Positions 5,535-12,534 of a stretch of 12,534 nt of DNA are shown in pieces (the stretch's first letter is position 1; each line of letters opens with the position of its first letter). The position numbers and the translations under genes are program-made. The stretch covers positions 1-12,534 of the forward strand of contig NZ_JAQFIQ010000056.1 in assembly GCF_029504745.1 (NCBI RefSeq), in the 5' to 3' direction. Below the pieces are notes generated by a model. The model searched no databases. It worked only from the letters and a program-made list of their open reading frames with translations, and had not been told where the DNA came from. Source of the stretch: Breznakia sp. PF5-3. Lineage in GTDB: Bacteria; Bacillota_I; Bacilli_A; Erysipelotrichales; Erysipelotrichaceae.

Positions 5535-5579
5535 AAATTCTCCTTTAAAATAAACTCGAGTTATTTCTTATACAACTAC

Positions 5580-5608
5580 ATTATAGATTTTACCTTTTGT
5601 CCAAGCAA
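5580..5608 (-). promoter_or_regulatory. SigmaA-type promoter of the PTS operon
   Basis: Minus strand reads TTGCTT (5608..5603), 17-nt spacer, TATAAT (5585..5580). The predicted 5' UTR of ~38 nt contains no terminator hairpin. Confidence 0.5.
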
Positions 5609-5611
5609 ATA

Positions 5612-5667
5612 AGCTTTTTCCTACACACTAGGAACCATCAAATAGCTTTTTCCTACTTACTAGGAAA
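5612..5667. promoter_or_regulatory. Two tandem palindromic boxes, candidate operator for the PRD activator
   Basis: AGCTTTTTCCTAcacacTAGGAA (5612..5634) and AGCTTTTTCCTActtacTAGGAA (5644..5666). Each contains TTCCTA-N5-TAGGAA. Centres at 5626 and 5658 are 32 bp apart, directly upstream of the -35. Confidence 0.5.
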
Positions 5668-5735
5668 GCATCTTATAAATAAAAACATTCAATTATCTTC
5701 TTTGGTTTTCTTGGTAATAAATATTTTAAGATGAT

Positions 5736-5771
5736 AACAAGAACTGCAGTGTTAGTATTGCAGCTCTTGTT
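5736..5771. repeat. Imperfect 12-bp inverted repeat / stem-loop in the spacer, function unknown
   Basis: AACAAGA-a-CTGCA (5736..5748), 10-nt loop, TGCAG-c-TCTTGTT (5759..5771). No adjacent U-tract on either strand, so it is not a canonical terminator. Confidence 0.4.
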
Positions 5772-5885
5772 AAATTAAATGCTTTTTTTATTATAATGTT
5801 CAAAAGCATAAGAAAGTCCCATTCTCATGGAGTTGTTTTTTATCATGAACCACATTTACGAATTAATCATCTAATTATATATGAT

Positions 5886-5949
5886 GGGAGTGTCAAATAG
5901 GTATGAAAATAAAACCATAGTAATAAAGAGTAAGTAGATTAATTAAGAT
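5886..5949 (+). repeat. Degenerate direct repeat, copy A (contains mini-ORF MKIKP*, 5903..5920)
   Basis: Shares ordered blocks with copy B about 260 bp downstream: GGGAG, TATGAAAATA, AATAAAGAGTA, TAATTA(A)GAT. Confidence 0.4.
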
Positions 5950-6144
5950 GTTTCGTTTTATAGGCATATTGGAGCTATCATCTAATTCTTTTAAAAGAAC
6001 AGAAGGCTTATACATAGTTTCTTAGAAAATTAAAAGAAATAAATTATGCTATAACCTTAACCCTGGCAGATAATCTCCATGTGTTGAGTTATGACTTACA
6101 ATGTTTTTATTTATCTCTTTTCTATTGGCCAAGTTTCAATGAAA

Positions 6145-6214
6145 GGGAGAGAATAAGGATAAAATATGAAAATAGTGATAAATAAAGAGTAGTCAACTAT
6201 TTACCTAATTAGAT
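6145..6214 (+). repeat. Degenerate direct repeat, copy B (contains mini-ORF MKIVINKE*, 6166..6192, with AAGGA 6 nt upstream)
   Basis: Same ordered blocks as copy A, at offsets of +259 to +266. It ends 33 nt before the start of the 6247 CDS. Confidence 0.4.
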
Positions 6215-6246
6215 TTTGACACTACCTTATAAGAAGGAGGTAAAAT

Positions 6247-6714
6247 ATGAAAAAGAAGTTACATATAAATTTATACAGATATAGTAAATATATTGTAATT
6301 GGTGGTGCTCTTGCCGCATATCCACTTTATGTTATAATATTGCGCTTGTTGAATCAAAGTAAATATCAAAGCTTATTTCCAATGACAGATACTAGCAACT
6401 ATCTCTTTATTGGCTTATGTGCAATTGCAATTACAGGAATTGTTTCATGTATTTATGGAATTGTATCTTTGGTAATAAATAAAGCAGTTTTTTATTCTGA
6501 ACATTTGGAGTATAAAACATTATTTAAAAAATATTATATTAGCTATAAAGATATGGAAAGAATACAAGAGACAAGACAAACAAAAATGAATATTATTCCA
6601 TCAACAAAAACAATTTATAAAATTATATGTAAAAATGGAAGTTATGAATTAAATAGTTATGAATTTATTGGAATAGGAAAACAATTAGATAAAATTAAAG
6701 GAGAACGTAAATGA
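6247..6714 (+). CDS. Small membrane protein: 2 TM helices plus a C-terminal PH-like (YdbS/YdbT bPH2-like) domain; uncharacterised
   Basis: Strong RBS AAGGAGG 6 nt upstream of the ATG. Basic N-terminus, hydrophobic helices at ~15-35 and ~52-77, then AVFYSEHLEYKTLFKKYYISYKDMERIQE...IYKIICKNGSYEL. This resembles a membrane-flanked bacterial PH domain by eye. No catalytic motif. Confidence 0.75.
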   Translation: MKKKLHINLYRYSKYIVIGGALAAYPLYVIILRLLNQSKYQSLFPMTDTSNYLFIGLCAIAITGIVSCIYGIVSLVINKAVFYSEHLEYKTLFKKYYISYKDMERIQETRQTKMNIIPSTKTIYKIICKNGSYELNSYEFIGIGKQLDKIKGERK

Positions 6715-7127
6715 ATATAAAAAGAACATATTGGTATCAATCAAGTAAAAAAACAAGATTAGGAGATTTATTTATTGAAAATAATACGATTAGTTTTGTG
6801 AATGATGACACAGATTATTCAAAACCAGGTGTAAGGTATATGAGTAAAAGAGCTAGAAGAAATGAACTAGCAAATGATGCAATAAAAAAAGGATTTGGAT
6901 TTTTAAAGAAAAAAGCTACAAAAGAAGTTGACGGGTTTGAATTATCACTTGCATCTTTAGAAAATATAACTATTACTTCTAAAAGGGTAGAAAGCTATCA
7001 CAATAAAGGGAGTTTCTATTATTCAAATGATGTTCAATTTGATTGTAATGGTGAGCATTATAAATTAGGAGTACATGCAGATGAAGAAGATTTTTACAAA
7101 GAATTGGAAACAATGTTAAAAAAATAA
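6711..7127 (+). CDS. Small soluble Lys-rich protein with a PH/GRAM-like strand pattern; uncharacterised
   Basis: ATGA start/stop overlap with the upstream gene (6711..6714). RBS AAGGAGA 6 nt upstream. LGDLFIENNTISFV ... FELSLASLENITITSKR ... VQFDCNGEHYKLGV ... terminal helix EEDFYKELETMLKK. Confidence 0.75.
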   Translation: MNIKRTYWYQSSKKTRLGDLFIENNTISFVNDDTDYSKPGVRYMSKRARRNELANDAIKKGFGFLKKKATKEVDGFELSLASLENITITSKRVESYHNKGSFYYSNDVQFDCNGEHYKLGVHADEEDFYKELETMLKK

Positions 7128-7145
7128 TACAAAGAATTAAACCGT

Positions 7146-7170
7146 ACCCCCGGACTATCTGGGGGTTTTA
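7146..7170 (+). terminator. Rho-independent terminator of the two-gene cassette
   Basis: ACCCCCGG..CTGGGGGT stem (CCCCC 7147..7151 / GGGGG 7161..7165) followed by TTTT, 19 nt after the stop at 7127. Confidence 0.75.
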
Positions 7171-7411: not shown

Positions 7412-9949
7412 TTATTCACTTAATCTTTCCACAATACTTTGCTTTTCTACTCTTCTATAAATAAGAATAGGCAACATGACAGAAATAATTGTAATAATTG
7501 CAACCAACATAATAACTGCGGTTGTTGGGTAAGTAAAAACTATTTTAGCTTGTCCTGCTTGAATAAAGTTACTAATAAAATATAAGAAACCACTTCCGAT
7601 ACTTATCAATAACGCAATCACAACAAGGCTGTATAGTATACCCTCCCATACTAATAGTTTTCGTAATTGCGTCCTTGTCATTCCAATGCTCTCTAGCATA
7701 ACCAATTCACGTCTTCTATTAGTCAGCGAAGTGTGCATAACATTGAAATAATTAAAAATTGCCATACCAAATAAAATAAAACTCATTGAATATAGTAAAA
7801 TTTTTATCGAGTTAATATAATCAATCGCTTCTTTCTCTGCAACATATTTTGCGAATACTTCGATTTTCGGAAGTGCCTCTTGGGTAAAATCTTTATTCTG
7901 TAATCTCATGATTTCATTGATAATATTATGAACTTCTATTTCTTTTCCTTCTTCAACAAAAATGTATACCCTATTAACTTCCTTATCAATTCCTAACTTT
8001 TCAAACCCTGATTCACTAATTAATATATATGGGTAATAAGTTGTGTTAGTAGACATATTTTTAAAATTAGGAAATCCTCGCATTTGTAAATCCAAATAAC
8101 CTCCAAATGTAAATTTTGCAAGCTCTTCATCTTTTCGATTATAGATTGTTACAAGTTCGCCATTCACTTCCTTTGCTTCTTTTTCCATTTTTTCCGAAAA
8201 GACATGGTGTTGCAAATTGAAGACTGTTTCACCTCGAACAAAACTTTCGATATCAATATCCAATTTATTTTCTTTTATAAATGATTCGAATTTTTGAATT
8301 TCATCATTGTCCACAATACGTAATCCGCTTACATATACTTGTCTTTCTTCTTCTATTTCTCCTTCTGCTTTTTGAAGTGGCTTCCAGACTTTATCATTTA
8401 TATTCAAATGTACATAAGCTTGATAAGTGGTGTCCATTGATGTAATTCCATCAATCTTCTTCAATTCATTTATAAATGATTCACTTAAATAAGTATCTTC
8501 TGAAATGAAATTTGAAGCATTCATATTCCATTCTGTCAAAGCAAAATCTGCTTCATTCTTATACATATTGGAATAATCTAAAATTTGAATTGCCATAATT
8601 GAACCAATACTTAATAAGCTAGCAACAAACAATGAAATGATTGTTTTAAAAAAGCGACCGCGATTCTTACTAATATTACGCCATGCCATTTTTCTAATTG
8701 AAATACTTTTCTTTGTCTGAATTTCTTTACTACTAATTTTATTTTTTCCATAAGTATAATACAATGCATCTTTTGGAGATATTGCATAGACTACCTTTAA
8801 CGGCAATAACATACTAATCATTGATATTATTCCTACAAACCCAATTACAATAAATAATAGCCACCATCGGATTGTAATAACTTCACCAATTGCAACACCT
8901 TCATTGGTTGTCAAACCGGATAATAAAAGAGGTAAAAGAAAGCGAACAATCATAAATGATAAACTACTTCCCAAAACTATTCCAGTTGCCACAATCCTTA
9001 TAATCTGTTTTTTTAGAATTAAGAAAATTTGTTTTTTTGTTGTTCCTATTGTTCGTAATAAACCTAATTCACGTACACTCTTTTCCAATGAAATTTGCAT
9101 AATATTATTGATTAATAGAAATACACTTATCACAATAATAGCACACAACATAATTGCTGTATCATAATTTCCATAAACAGTTTGCACTGCTGCATAAGTT
9201 AGTGTATCAGCAGCAACAAATTGCTGTATATCATCAATCGTTTCAATCTTCTCATACAAAATACTTTCTATTTCTTCAAACAATAAATGATCTTGTTGCT
9301 TCATTATCAATAAATCTGATTGATTTAATGATCTTCCACTTTTTTCCAAATAAGGGATTGAAAAGAAAGCACTTGGCAATGACATATGAGAATCTACATA
9401 CTCTTCAAAATATCCACTCAATATAAATATTTCATCCTTTGTATTATCTTTATCATCTCTCAATGTCAGTTCTATTTCCATTCCTATTTTGGGCTTTATA
9501 CCAAGCTCTTCTAACACTTTCATTGGTAACATAACTTCATTCTCTTGGGTAGGATAACCACCATGTATGTTGCTAAATGCTGGCCTATATAGCTCTTTAT
9601 AAGCAACATCATCAACAACTTTTCCTATAAATAGTTGATGATTATCTTTCTCTCCCATACCAACACTTGATTCTTTTCCAACGATTTCTAAGCAATCCAA
9701 TGTTTTCGCTTGTTTATACTGTTCTGCTGTCGGACGATCCAAATAAACAGTTGCTAAACTTCCCGATTTTCTTGCATACATTAAATACTCACTATCTACT
9801 TGCGCAAATGAAATACTAGTAATACAAAACAATAAAATTACTGCAAAACTAATTGCGCCAATTAGCAAACTATTTCGAGAACGATTATTTTTATAACTGT
9901 TTTTTGCAAGATTTAAAATCACTGATGTATTATTATTTTTAATCATCAT
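7412..9949 (-). CDS. ABC transporter permease, tandem FtsX/MacB-type (8 predicted TM, two large extracytoplasmic domains)
   Basis: 845 aa. Two repeated modules: basic N-terminal segment (NSYKNNRSRNSLL / RNISKNRGRFFKT), one TM, a ~215-aa or ~255-aa hydrophilic domain, then 3 TM. The FtsX loop signatures are RELGLLRTIGTTKKQ and RELVMLESIGMTRTQ. ATG 9949 lies 1 nt after the ATPase stop. Confidence 0.9.
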   Translation of the reverse strand: MMIKNNNTSVILNLAKNSYKNNRSRNSLLIGAISFAVILLFCITSISFAQVDSEYLMYARKSGSLATVYLDRPTAEQYKQAKTLDCLEIVGKESSVGMGEKDNHQLFIGKVVDDVAYKELYRPAFSNIHGGYPTQENEVMLPMKVLEELGIKPKIGMEIELTLRDDKDNTKDEIFILSGYFEEYVDSHMSLPSAFFSIPYLEKSGRSLNQSDLLIMKQQDHLLFEEIESILYEKIETIDDIQQFVAADTLTYAAVQTVYGNYDTAIMLCAIIVISVFLLINNIMQISLEKSVRELGLLRTIGTTKKQIFLILKKQIIRIVATGIVLGSSLSFMIVRFLLPLLLSGLTTNEGVAIGEVITIRWWLLFIVIGFVGIISMISMLLPLKVVYAISPKDALYYTYGKNKISSKEIQTKKSISIRKMAWRNISKNRGRFFKTIISLFVASLLSIGSIMAIQILDYSNMYKNEADFALTEWNMNASNFISEDTYLSESFINELKKIDGITSMDTTYQAYVHLNINDKVWKPLQKAEGEIEEERQVYVSGLRIVDNDEIQKFESFIKENKLDIDIESFVRGETVFNLQHHVFSEKMEKEAKEVNGELVTIYNRKDEELAKFTFGGYLDLQMRGFPNFKNMSTNTTYYPYILISESGFEKLGIDKEVNRVYIFVEEGKEIEVHNIINEIMRLQNKDFTQEALPKIEVFAKYVAEKEAIDYINSIKILLYSMSFILFGMAIFNYFNVMHTSLTNRRRELVMLESIGMTRTQLRKLLVWEGILYSLVVIALLISIGSGFLYFISNFIQAGQAKIVFTYPTTAVIMLVAIITIISVMLPILIYRRVEKQSIVERLSE

Positions 9950-9950
9950 C

Positions 9951-10616
9951 TTATCCTACCAATCCATCCTCAATACGAATAATACGATCACATAGTTGTG
10001 CAATTTCCTCACTATGTGTAACAACAATGATTGTTTGTTGATATTTTGCAGCACTCATCTTTAATAATTCAATTACTTCCATACTTGTTTTTGAATCTAA
10101 ATTTCCTGTTGGTTCATCGGCTAATATGATTGCCGGTTTATTAACCAAAGCCCTAGCAATTGCTACCCTTTGCTGTTGTCCTCCTGACAAATTCAAAGGA
10201 ACTGTATGTATCTTTTCCTTTAATTTCAATGTATCAATAATATTATCTACAAATTCTACATCTATTTGTTTTCCATCTAGTTGTAATGGCAACACAATAT
10301 TTTCATATACATTTAATGTAGATATTAAATTGTAATTTTGGAACACAAAGCCAATATTTCTTCTGCGAAAGATTGTCAATTCTTTATCCTTTAATGTTTC
10401 AATATCAGTATCTAATATCGTAACACTTCCTTTACTTGAATAATCCAATCCTCCTATCATATTTAATAATGTTGTTTTTCCACTTCCGGATGTTCCTACG
10501 ATTGCAACAAATTCACCCTGCTCAATTTCAATATCAACACCTTGTAATGCGTGTACTTCAACCTCACTTCCCTGCTGATATACTTTCTTCAAATCCTTCG
10601 TTTTTAGTACTATCAT
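9951..10616 (-). CDS. ABC transporter ATP-binding protein (MacB/LolD/BceA-like)
   Basis: Walker A GTSGSGKTT, Q-loop FVFQNYNL, signature LSGGQQQRVAIARAL, Walker B IILADEPTGNLD, H-loop VTHSEE. RBS AAGGAGA upstream of ATG 10616. Confidence 0.95.
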   Translation of the reverse strand: MIVLKTKDLKKVYQQGSEVEVHALQGVDIEIEQGEFVAIVGTSGSGKTTLLNMIGGLDYSSKGSVTILDTDIETLKDKELTIFRRRNIGFVFQNYNLISTLNVYENIVLPLQLDGKQIDVEFVDNIIDTLKLKEKIHTVPLNLSGGQQQRVAIARALVNKPAIILADEPTGNLDSKTSMEVIELLKMSAAKYQQTIIVVTHSEEIAQLCDRIIRIEDGLVG

Positions 10617-10645
10617 TATATAATCTCCTTCATTTTACTAACTTC

Positions 10646-10681
10646 ATTATAGAAGACAATTATTACAAACTTATAACAAAT
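10646..10681 (-). promoter_or_regulatory. Activator-type promoter of the ABC genes with an 11-bp direct repeat (candidate response-regulator box)
   Basis: Minus strand reads TTTGTTATAAG (10680..10670) and TTTGTAATAAT (10669..10659), identical at 9/11 positions. Seven nt follow, then TATAAT (10651..10646). The -35 position reads ATAAGT (poor), which fits activator dependence. Confidence 0.4.
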
Positions 10682-10705
10682 AAAAGGAAACTTTCAAAGT
10701 TTCCT
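10676..10705 (-). terminator. Rho-independent terminator after the histidine kinase gene
   Basis: Minus strand reads AGGAAACT-ttgaa-AGTTTCCT followed by TTTTATTTGTT. The stem overlaps the kinase TAG stop (10704..10706). Confidence 0.6.
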
Positions 10706-11696
10706 ATTTTGGTAACACAACTAAAAAAATTGTTCCTTTTTCTTTTCGCTTTACTTTTATATATCCCTCATGTGCTTGAACAATCATTCTTGTTATATAT
10801 AAGCCTAAACCAAAACCTTTTTGATTACTTACTCTATTTCCTCTATAAAAACGTTTAAATACTACCGCCTCTTCTTCTATATCAATTCCAATGCCATTGT
10901 CTTCAATTTGAATTTGGGTAAACATATCATTCTCATTTATTGAAATATATATTTCTTCATTTTCACTTGAATACTTAATTGCATTATCAATGATATTAAC
11001 AAGTGCTTCTTTCATCCATTGAAAATCATGAAATAGTTCATACGTATTTTTTTCATCAAAACAAAGCTGAATATTTTTACTATTCGCAAAATCATTCATT
11101 GATAAAATTGCTTCGCGAATTGTTAGTGTCAATGATTGCTTGTTTAATTTCAACTGAATAATTTTTCCTTCGATTCGTGACATTCTAATAAAATTTTCAC
11201 TTAAAAACGACATTGTCTGCATCGCTTTCTCAACGCTTTCAATATACTCTTGCTGTTCTTGGTTAAGTTCTTCCTTCTCCAATAATTCTAAGTATAATTT
11301 CATATTTGCCAATGGTGTTCTCATTTGATGAGCAATATCATTAATTAATAGTCGTATTTCATCGCGATCTTTTTCTATTTCTTCTTGTTTGGAAATAAAT
11401 AAGGTATTCATTTTTTCTAATTGATGGTGTATTTTAGAAGACATATATTCATCATTCAACAATCCAATTTTTATCTTCTCTTGATTTATCATTTGATCAA
11501 TTACAATTGATAATTCATTTAATTCCTTTTGCATAGTATTTCTTTCCACCAAAATCATAATAATCCCATAAGCAGTGATTGCAATACTAGCAAATATAAG
11601 TATTAAATTATGATACATTAATCCATAGATTACAATACCAACTAAAAGAAGTCCATATCCAAGAAGCATACCTTTCTCTTTTATCCACCTTATCAT
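10704..11696 (-). CDS. Intramembrane-sensing histidine kinase (BceS-like)
   Basis: Two N-terminal TM helices are joined by a ~3-residue loop (…GIVIYGLMY-HNL-ILIFASIAI…), with no extracytoplasmic sensor domain. H-box DIAHQMRTPLANM, N-box IIDNAIKYS, G1 IEDNGIGI, G2 GFGLGLYI. The preferred start is ATG 11696 (MIRWIKEKG) with GGTGA upstream, 1 nt after the RR stop. The ORF-track start at 11732 would overlap the RR gene by 35 nt. Confidence 0.9.
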   Translation of the reverse strand: MIRWIKEKGMLLGYGLLLVGIVIYGLMYHNLILIFASIAITAYGIIMILVERNTMQKELNELSIVIDQMINQEKIKIGLLNDEYMSSKIHHQLEKMNTLFISKQEEIEKDRDEIRLLINDIAHQMRTPLANMKLYLELLEKEELNQEQQEYIESVEKAMQTMSFLSENFIRMSRIEGKIIQLKLNKQSLTLTIREAILSMNDFANSKNIQLCFDEKNTYELFHDFQWMKEALVNIIDNAIKYSSENEEIYISINENDMFTQIQIEDNGIGIDIEEEAVVFKRFYRGNRVSNQKGFGLGLYITRMIVQAHEGYIKVKRKEKGTIFLVVLPK

Positions 11697-11697
11697 T

Positions 11698-12363
11698 TTA
11701 ATCACCAAAATGATATCCACTTCCAAATACATTTTTAATATATGCTTTGGAATTCTTATCTAATTTTTTTCGTAATCTACTAATCGTAACGGTAACGCTG
11801 CTTTCATCAACATATTGTTCTTTTGCATCCCATACACTTTCAAGAATTAATGTTTTACTTATTACACGGTTTTTATTCCTCATTAATAAATGCAACACAT
11901 CAAACTCATTGTTGGTTAACGCAATTGGTGTTCCTGAAACTTTTACTTCGCGACGATCAACATTCATCTCTAAATGATTATATTTCAATACATTACTTTT
12001 ATTTTCATTGCGCCGCAACACTACCTCAATTCGTTTTAATAGTATTTTCATTGAAAATGGTTTTACAATATAGTCTTCACATCCACTATCATATGCTTTT
12101 ATCATATCAACCTCATCATCTTTTGCAGTTAAAAAAATTACTGAAACATTGGTATCTTTTGAAAAGTATTTATATATTTCAAACCCCTCACCATCTGGCA
12201 AACCAATATCAAGTAATAATATTTGGATATTTTCTTGCTTAATCATCTGTATCCCCTCATGAACACAATATGCTTGAAACACTTTATATCCATTCTTTTC
12301 TAATAGCAATTTTATTGCATGATTTAATTGCTTATCATCTTCAATTATTCCTATTGTTGTCAT
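11698..12363 (-). CDS. OmpR/PhoB-family response regulator (BceR-like)
   Basis: Receiver motifs IIEDD, LLLDIGLPDGEG, FLTAKD, YIVKPF. C-terminal winged-helix domain (LTNNEFDVLHLLMRN...VTISRLRKKL...GSGYHF). The preferred start is ATG 12363 (MTTIGIIEDD) with GGTGA upstream. The ORF-track start at 12375 is a TTG. Confidence 0.9.
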   Translation of the reverse strand: MTTIGIIEDDKQLNHAIKLLLEKNGYKVFQAYCVHEGIQMIKQENIQILLLDIGLPDGEGFEIYKYFSKDTNVSVIFLTAKDDEVDMIKAYDSGCEDYIVKPFSMKILLKRIEVVLRRNENKSNVLKYNHLEMNVDRREVKVSGTPIALTNNEFDVLHLLMRNKNRVISKTLILESVWDAKEQYVDESSVTVTISRLRKKLDKNSKAYIKNVFGSGYHFGD

Positions 12364-12534
12364 TTTTATCACCAACCACTATAAACTCATCTTATCAAAT
12401 ACCTATTCTTATGTAAAATAATTATGTGAATTTCTATTAGGTAGTGTAAAATATCTTGTGTAAACTCCTAGGGCTACCAACCTAGGATAGATAGCTAATA
12501 TAGAAAAAGGGAGCCATTCCTAGTAGAATTAATT

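Follow-up and report, generated by a model that had tools for sequence, protein, structure and literature searches.

A compact two-gene cassette, geneA-geneB, lies in a 12,534-nt stretch of DNA from Breznakia sp. PF5-3 (contig NZ_JAQFIQ010000056.1; this whole stretch is called the window below). Its two products, A and B, represent an undescribed family, because neither protein falls in any Pfam, NCBIfam, PADLOC, or PHROG family. We tentatively put forward the possibility that geneA and geneB constitute a mobile conflict-type membrane module, with A as the putative effector and B as its putative cytoplasmic partner. This reading draws on the coupling of two non-enzymatic proteins, purifying selection, a patchy distribution over varying loci, neighbors that include integrase, restriction-modification (R-M), toxin-antitoxin (TA), and STAND genes, and a decay that affects one side of the pair. 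The features of the cassette, from 5' to 3', are listed here.

5535-6233, no strand assigned: long, AT-rich noncoding stretch between geneA and the divergent phosphotransferase system (PTS) operon; the cassette promoter is expected here
6234-6240, + strand: Shine-Dalgarno (SD) sequence of geneA, AAGGAGG, 6 nt ahead of the ATG (sequence reading)
6247-6714, + strand: geneA, open reading frame (ORF) for a 155-aa integral membrane protein
6697-6703, + strand: SD sequence of geneB, AAAGGAG, within the 3' end of geneA and 7 nt ahead of the ATG (sequence reading)
6711-6714, + strand: ATGA, overlap of the geneB start with the geneA stop (translational coupling; sequence reading)
6711-7127, + strand: geneB, ORF for a 138-aa soluble protein
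7146-7169, + strand: intrinsic-terminator-like hairpin followed by UUUU, with a 9-bp stem (ACCCCCGGA/UCUGGGGGU) and a 3-nt loop

A first, sequence-only reading of this locus had described two small genes with strong SD sites, an ATGA overlap, and a terminator, and each of these was recovered by reading or computation at 6234-7169. It had also described the cassette as opposed in orientation to its surroundings, and all nine other genes of the window are indeed on the - strand. The translations contain every motif that it quoted: FYSEHLEYKTLFKKYYISYKDMERIQE, G-D-L-F-I-E-N-N-T-I-S-F, ELSLASLENITIT, and the C-terminal helix EEDFYKELETMLKK.

The same reading had called the pair an orphan. This label is true for word-indexed homology searches only, which returned nothing except the query itself when each single protein was used. 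When 1.84 billion representatives were scanned exhaustively by phmmer with the geneB product, four full-length relatives emerged (29 to 39% identity; E values, 1.6e-17 to 4.5e-6), and a profile search among 5.8 billion proteins widened the family to 11 proteins of 137 to 147 aa (10 besides that of the window; 24 to 40% identity). One eukaryotic match in the phmmer scan was discarded as spurious and of low complexity. The geneB family thus comprises 11 clusters or lineages including the window, about 7 to 8 of which have informative flanks; the loci or lineages that carry the relatives are labeled L004 to L019. No family member was found by tblastn among 72,556 PLSDB plasmids and 50,697 INPHARED phage records (no match for B and only noise from the transmembrane [TM] region for A), in IMG/VR scanned with the alignment of the family and with four of its members singly, or in two metagenome contig scans.

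A geneA homologue stands directly upstream of geneB in 8 of the 11 lineages. Seven are full length (the window, L004, L005 with L006 to L008, L013, L009/L010, L014, and L011), and of that in L016 only the 3' end can be seen, where the contig breaks off. The seven A proteins align over their full length at 29 to 46% identity and measure about 152 to 160 aa. At the junction the two genes overlap by 4, 4, 10, 14, 10, and 8 nt in six homologous loci and are separated by gaps of 13 to 15 nt with an SD sequence in two; GGAG or GGGGG equivalents of the SD sequence precede geneB in all of the homologous loci. The pair is confined to a few Firmicutes of gut type but spans lineages of 29 to 51% GC, in unrelated neighborhoods. 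In L011 the ATG called for geneA is wrong: translation truly begins 42 nt farther upstream, at a TTG, and with this start the N-terminal motif is regained. Upstream of that gene, at about 880 to 930, a near-consensus promoter (TTGACA-17-TACACT) sits inside an operator-like inverted repeat, TTTTGTCTGTTTGTCAAAAAAGCTTGACAAAAGACAAAA.

Both genes are clearly under purifying selection. In the L005-L013 comparison, A has a ratio of nonsynonymous to synonymous substitution rates (dN/dS) of 0.13 and B one of 0.17; for B the value is 0.085 between L011 and L012 and ranges from 0.09 to 0.17 among the B genes, solo ones included. The pairing of homologues implied by the sequence-only reading stands for 8 of the 11 lineages and fails as an obligate rule, since L015 and L017 carry geneB alone. 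In L015 (530-588) geneA is deleted except for about 20 nt of its old 3' end, and an integrase fragment takes its place ahead of geneB; in L017 (507-555) geneA is likewise deleted, and an EtfA-like gene precedes geneB. In L012 (785-1069) geneA is shortened to 94 aa by a clean deletion of the C-terminal domain, with the SD sequence of geneB kept. These three loci form a natural decay series, throughout which geneB is intact and constrained. The loss or shortening of A with retention of B at a dN/dS of about 0.1 fits a costly A and a harmless or protective B.

The anatomy of A was derived from hydropathy and charge in seven family members; the alignment and the Pfam comparisons likewise covered seven. 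TM1 lies at about 14 to 35 and TM2 at about 50 to 78, with a short, weakly charged outer loop between them, and residues 78 to 155 form a basic C-terminal domain of about 80 aa. Four to five K/R and zero to one D/E precede TM1 across the members (five and zero in the protein of the window). From this charge pattern and the two hydrophobic segments, A is predicted to be a two-TM hairpin of N-in/C-in topology with a cytoplasmic C-terminal domain, in agreement with the hairpin originally described. Its conserved motifs are N-x-Y-R-Y-x-K before TM1 and N-K/R-A-V-F after TM2, followed by Y-R/K-T-L, I-x-Y-x-D/E-I, and E-F-x-G-L/I-x-K.

B contains no TM segment (maximal 19-residue hydropathy, ≤1.0) and is predicted to be a soluble cytoplasmic protein. 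It consists of a β-rich N-terminal third, a basic amphipathic helical segment at about 40 to 72, a β-rich C-terminal half, and a C-terminal helix. The center is most conserved (D-x-D-Y..G-G-V-R-x-M-x-K and F-x-S-K-L-F-K-K-A), and K46, F62, and K67 in the helical segment are invariant in the 11-member alignment. This central helix is cationic and amphipathic, with an 11-residue hydrophobic moment of 0.7 to 0.8 in several members; as a lead, the helix of MinD offers a parallel, being one of those that target proteins to the membrane by lying in its plane.

Invariant residues in both families are mostly aromatic, aliphatic, glycine, or lysine, and the alignments of the A and B families show no conserved His, Cys, or acidic constellation pointing to catalysis. 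Searches of Pfam, NCBIfam, and PADLOC gave no match of A or B to a helix-turn-helix (HTH), ribbon-helix-helix, AbrB, or toxin family, and NCBIfam, PADLOC-DB 2.0 (E ≤ 10), and PHROGs gave zero matches of any kind. The family scans thus bear out the view, expressed before, that neither protein has an enzymatic or nucleic-acid-binding motif. Because no enzymatic, defense, or phage family is matched, the action of the pair is likely structural or membrane based.

The neighborhoods of the pair differ from lineage to lineage. An Oscillospiraceae bacterium is the host of L004, in which a type I R-M system (MTase_I; E value, 4e-122) adjoins the pair together with an HTH gene divergent from it. L009, L010, L018, and L019 share an island that encodes a tyrosine integrase, an excisionase-like HTH_17 protein, and an nSTAND3 NTPase of 781 aa; along its entire length, the NTPase matches the PADLOC candidate PDC-S73 (E value, 8e-121). 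In the L009 group the A-B pair lies 146 nt downstream of the nSTAND3 gene, at the island edge beside gltX. The NTPase gene occupies 3041-5386 in L009, equivalent to 3261-5606 in L018 and 5291-7636 in L019, and its N-terminal approximately 220 aa match argonaute-associated TIR/REase-type models. Around this island and around the cassette of the window, no convincing direct repeats, att sites, or tRNA genes were found. L012 has a PIN/PhdYeFM TA pair upstream, divergent from the cassette, and TraX downstream, and in L015 an integrase fragment is directly upstream of geneB. Out of about 8 informative lineages in this small sample, 4 (L004, L009, L012, and L015) thus have defense, TA, or integrase genes next to the pair.

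The remaining neighborhoods are of other kinds. In L011, a histidine kinase and a MatE exporter are nearby, and in L017 the gene for the α subunit of electron transfer flavoprotein adjoins geneB. L005 and L013 have phosphoenolpyruvate carboxykinase upstream and two paralogous lipoproteins and a CPBP protease downstream; PadR/HAAS/PspC genes also lie within 5 kb in L005, as does the CPBP protease. The lipoproteins of L005 (6467-7249, 260 aa, and 7493-8317, 274 aa) carry a lipobox, F-T/A-G-C, have no family match, and recur in L006, L007, and L013. Their genes directly follow geneB in L005 with no terminator between, and the CPBP intramembrane protease is next. We rejected these 260- and 274-aa genes as part of the system, as they are lineage-specific paralogous lipoproteins of L005/L013.

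According to the conflict-type reading, geneA-geneB would be a rare, horizontally mobile two-gene accessory module working at the cytoplasmic face of the membrane. A and B are produced from one coupled transcript, and B might bind the cytoplasmic domain of A, the inner leaflet, or both. A, probably oligomeric, would be a membrane-acting and potentially harmful effector, with B as its putative cytoplasmic neutralizer, regulator, or sensor. The pair could then be a TA-like or abortive-infection-type module that variable regions and defense islands carry along, and not an accessory of the Bce-like transporter that adjoins it in the window. Quite unlikely in our estimation is a narrower version, a two-gene anti-phage, abortive-infection, or addiction system of gut Firmicutes, in which a pleckstrin homology (PH)-like B, as cytoplasmic sensor or regulator, would control an oligomeric, two-TM, PH-like A that collapses membrane integrity, the whole being cargo of integrase-borne defense islands.

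A close parallel in layout is lambda RexA/RexB, a two-gene membrane-effector abortive-infection module. That system likewise combines a small membrane protein with a cytoplasmic partner in a compact cassette on mobile or variable DNA, with no known enzymatic domains. RexB has four TM segments, in contrast to A, which has two and a cytoplasmic domain predicted to be folded; A-B also differs from modules of the RexA/RexB type in being neither phage nor plasmid borne in the collections searched and in showing no PADLOC similarity. With type II TA systems the pair shares the form of a small coupled operon, with an overlap of 4 to 14 nt in most lineages, but it has no DNA-binding antitoxin domain and no toxin of a known family.

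Several observations weigh against a conflict-type role. The sample is small, with 11 lineages of which about 7 have informative flanks, and the window, L005/L013, L011, and L017 have no adjacent defense genes. No PADLOC model was matched by A or B; the defense or TA-like function that had been suggested earlier gains some support from the neighborhoods (R-M, the PDC-S73 island, PIN/Phd, and the integrase fragment). The family is absent from the plasmid, phage, and IMG/VR sets, where TA and abortive-infection modules are usually common, and B has no recognizable DNA-binding domain, unlike the classic type II antitoxins. The constrained solo B could equally reflect a function independent of A. 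We infer, moreover, both the interaction of A with B and the oligomerization of A.

The constraint on solo B makes room in particular for the view that the pair is a membrane scaffold outside any conflict, in which A would anchor B for some lineage-specific physiology (lipid handling, signaling, or localization) and the defense and mobile neighbors would be coincidental. We regard this as somewhat unlikely. It is consistent with the lack of toxin, nuclease, NTPase, or sensor domains, with ordinary metabolic or transport genes in about half of the informative contexts, and with the constraint on B without A in two lineages, which suggests an autonomous, nontoxic function. Nevertheless, the family occurs extremely rarely and in scattered lineages (11 clusters among 5.8 billion proteins), the locus differs in every lineage, integrases and R-M and TA genes are repeatedly adjacent, and the cassette is a compositional outlier within the window. 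Sparse distribution, varying loci, outlier composition, and mobile or defense neighbors are together atypical of housekeeping physiology. As to composition, the GC content at third codon positions of geneA and geneB is 0.14, versus 0.19 to 0.23 in all nine other genes of the window; the lowest GC content of the contig (0.22) falls at 6401-6800, and the spacers on the two sides of the cassette are unusually long (712 and 284 nt).

The main rival is an envelope or export function of the kind served by YdbS and YdbT. Here A would be a diverged member of the membrane-flanked bacterial PH proteins, partnered by a soluble PH-like B, and the two would act in protection of the membrane against, or export of, cationic peptide antibiotics, possibly with ABC (ATP-binding cassette) transporters like the Bce-like one next door; we consider this unlikely. 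The proteins in question comprise Bacillus subtilis YdbS/YdbT, DdE/DdF of enterocins DD14/L50, LnqC/D, and aureocin Orf7/8 (bPH_2, PF03703; COG3402). The leaderless enterocin DD14 depends on DdE and DdF for its export (PMC8657885), clusters for leaderless bacteriocins commonly include PH-domain proteins (PMC11580447), and ydbST is regulated by σW (PMC3498285); the membership of ydbST in that regulon speaks for an envelope role.

In size and architecture A matches YdbS (159 aa) and DdE (141 aa), which have two TM helices and one domain of about 75 aa (PMC8657885): with about 140 to 160 aa, it consists of a two-helix hairpin directly followed by a single cytoplasmic domain of about 75 to 80 aa. 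Both sets are translationally coupled accessory genes, often in mobile contexts, and the architecture of A-B is a variant of the theme of a small two-TM protein plus coupled partner that is known from YdbS/YdbT. As comparators we used genuine pairs of this type from leaderless-bacteriocin plasmids, one set taken from the enterocin L50 cluster and the others from two clusters of the aureocin A53 type. The YdbS/YdbT-like (DdE/DdF-like) pairs in two plasmid loci, L020 (3151-4961) and L022 (1065-2863), also show the 4-nt overlap, a form of coupling that A-B shares. The small partners in both loci are annotated merely as hypothetical, which indicates that the YdbS-like class is systematically under-annotated.

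B is much less like YdbT. The YdbT-type partner has 460 to 490 aa, six TM helices, and three PHb2 domains (PMC8657885), whereas B is a soluble protein of 137 to 147 aa with no TM segment, no repeated PHb2 domains, and no Pfam match. Unlike the known sets, A has no significant bPH_2 match, and the pair is not associated with a bacteriocin gene or a conserved ABC transporter: the ABC adjacency occurs in one lineage, the neighborhood is different in each lineage, and, unlike leaderless or circular bacteriocin clusters, none of eight loci has a core-peptide gene beside A-B. Upstream of geneA, no small bacteriocin-like ORF (SD-preceded ATG, 8 to 90 codons, cationic) was found in these eight loci, the window having an 8-codon upstream ORF (uORF) only. 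Context in favor of an envelope role comes from the two-component system and ABC/FtsX genes of the window, the histidine kinase and MatE of L011, and the PadR/HAAS/PspC genes and CPBP protease of L005.

Whether the proteins are PH-like bears directly on this rival. The sequence-only reading had proposed a membrane-flanked PH fold for A and a GRAM/PH-like fold for B. For A, the match to bPH_4 has an E value of 0.012 (0.0035 for the C-terminal domain alone) in one of the seven members and is sub-threshold, at 16.2 to 17.8 bits against a cutoff of 22.9; PH_TRF2_HOY1 is likewise matched below threshold in one of the seven. DUF6585 (PF20226) is matched in two of the seven members over TM2 and the C-terminal domain, and A scores below the family cutoff (18.6 versus 27.7 bits); this family is itself uncharacterized and finds no mention in the literature searched. 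No member of the A family matches bPH_2, and the consensus sequence has no PH match.

Native B sequences gave no Pfam match in any family member. After deletion of the insert, one of eight B constructs matched bPH_3 over profile positions 12 to 84 of 95 (E value, 0.012; 16.5 versus 23 bits), and the same construct matched the POB3_N PH domain (E value, 0.06). B resembles bPH_3 proteins (PF14470, YokE-like) in its size, the opening G-x-L-x-I...F hairpin, a later L..I.I strand, and the C-terminal helix, but it carries a conserved basic helical insert of about 40 residues that is lacking in the profile. GRAM (PF02893) was not matched at an E value of ≤10 by any B member or insert-deleted construct.

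PH-type families thus recur among the few weak matches to a library of 24,736 models, above chance expectation (bPH_4 and PH_TRF2_HOY1 for A; bPH_3 and POB3_N for B), and none reaches a curated threshold. This recurrence is suggestive at the level of sequence profiles. Weak scores are also typical of the YdbS-like class, because the DdE-like protein of enterocin L50, a homologue of the studied DdE, has no Pfam match and another YdbS-like protein scores 21.6 against a cutoff of 22.

By hhalign, A gave a probability of 0.5% against three YdbS-like proteins, and its C-terminal domain aligned with 12 PHb2 domains over 50 columns in the expected register (P, 0.0047; probability, 7.5%), a weak in-register similarity that favors the likeness to YdbS and is not significant. 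The B core against the same 12 domains was not significant either (P, 0.07); the B family shows no detectable relation to PHb2 domains or to A, and a relation of A and B to each other was rejected, since hhalign detected none between A and B or between the A C-terminal domain and the B core. Sequence and profile searches of the PDB with B, A, the A C-terminal domain, and insert-deleted B returned nothing below an E value of 0.18.

A single-sequence AlphaFold2 model of B (predicted local distance difference test [pLDDT], 50) has the order βββ-H-βββ-H, compatible with a PH-like sandwich plus a helical insert, and Foldseek of this low-confidence model against the PDB gave no match at an E value of ≤0.001. 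The corresponding model of A has a pLDDT of 58, with the C-terminal domain below 50 and modeled as helices. PH- or GRAM-like folds for A and B are therefore plausible and are not established: with sub-threshold Pfam matches, nonsignificant hhalign results, pLDDT values of 50 to 58, and an empty Foldseek search, they stay a weak lead.

That the two frames are chance ORFs or decaying pseudogenes in AT-rich intergenic DNA is extremely improbable: the cassette does lie in the lowest-GC stretch of the window, and its products have no database family match and only self matches in word-indexed searches, but the reading is excluded by conservation and dN/dS, with full-length homologues of both proteins across lineages of 29 to 51% GC at dN/dS values of 0.09 to 0.17, and also conflicts with the conserved SD sites and start/stop coupling and with the identical locus in independent samples (a 12.7-kb contig in four samples and a separate 997-nt Logan contig, at 100% identity).

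The terminator hairpin of the cassette (7146-7166; ΔG, -16.4 kcal/mol by RNAfold) begins 19 nt past the geneB stop and is absent from the output of a simple consensus terminator scan. The same scan located a - strand terminator of the convergent permease operon at 7202-7180, and the two terminators, back-to-back at 7146-7169 (+) and 7202-7180 (-), part the cassette from that operon. In the 5535-6233 spacer, promoter-like matches are no more frequent than in shuffled sequences, and no SD-bearing ORF was found except the uORF at 6166-6192; Rfam has no RNA family anywhere in the window. This uORF (8 codons, MKIVINKE) has its own SD sequence and lies 55 nt upstream of geneA. The 13-nt initiation context TAAAATATGAAAA is identical at 6160-6172 (uORF) and 6241-6253 (geneA start), which could be chance in AT-rich DNA or could mark a leader peptide.

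To the left of the cassette, all on the - strand, are genes for a LicR/Mga-type PRD regulator, PTS IIA, a GH1 6-phospho-β-glucosidase, PTS IIC, and PTS IIB. Upstream of PTS IIB, about 80 to 130 nt from its start on the - strand, lies a 23-nt tandem direct repeat (5612-5634 and 5644-5666; 91% identity), each copy of which contains the palindrome TTCCTA-N5-TAGGAA. The LicR/Mga-type PRD regulator (gene at 230-2161) may use this repeat as its operator.

The genes to the right, also on the - strand, form a module (7412-12375) of an OmpR-type response regulator, a histidine kinase of the intramembrane type, which has two N-terminal TM helices with almost no extracellular loop, a MacB/LolD-like ABC ATPase, and a duplicated FtsX permease of 845 aa. 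The module is Bce-like in architecture only; none of its proteins reached an NCBIfam equivalog. At 845 aa, the permease exceeds the typical length of BceB by about 200 aa. The listed ORF of the response regulator (TTG at 12375) overlaps that of the kinase, and in the gene calls of the assembly the two are adjacent with no overlap.

The sequence-only reading had linked the pair to this module as a possible accessory of peptide-antibiotic resistance. The adjacency is confined to the window, where the Bce-like two-component system and ABC/FtsX genes adjoin the pair; no FtsX permease is near it in the other lineages, so a conserved neighborhood with a Bce-type resistance module is not seen. The closest sequenced relative of the permease is that of Breznakia blatticola (58% identity), and in a synteny test the homologous module of that species has other genes downstream, with no A-B cassette and no PTS operon. 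The link was not upheld.

Two ORFs that had appeared as orphans have become a defined family with alignments, topology, motifs, a series of geneA losses, and neighborhoods. With 11 clusters in 5.8 billion proteins the family is extremely rare, and it will matter little in general unless its mechanism proves to be new. If the conflict-type reading of geneA-geneB is true, bacterial PH-like membrane-flanked proteins would gain a role beyond bacteriocin export, and the pair would represent a new minimal membrane-acting defense or addiction system built from two non-enzymatic proteins.

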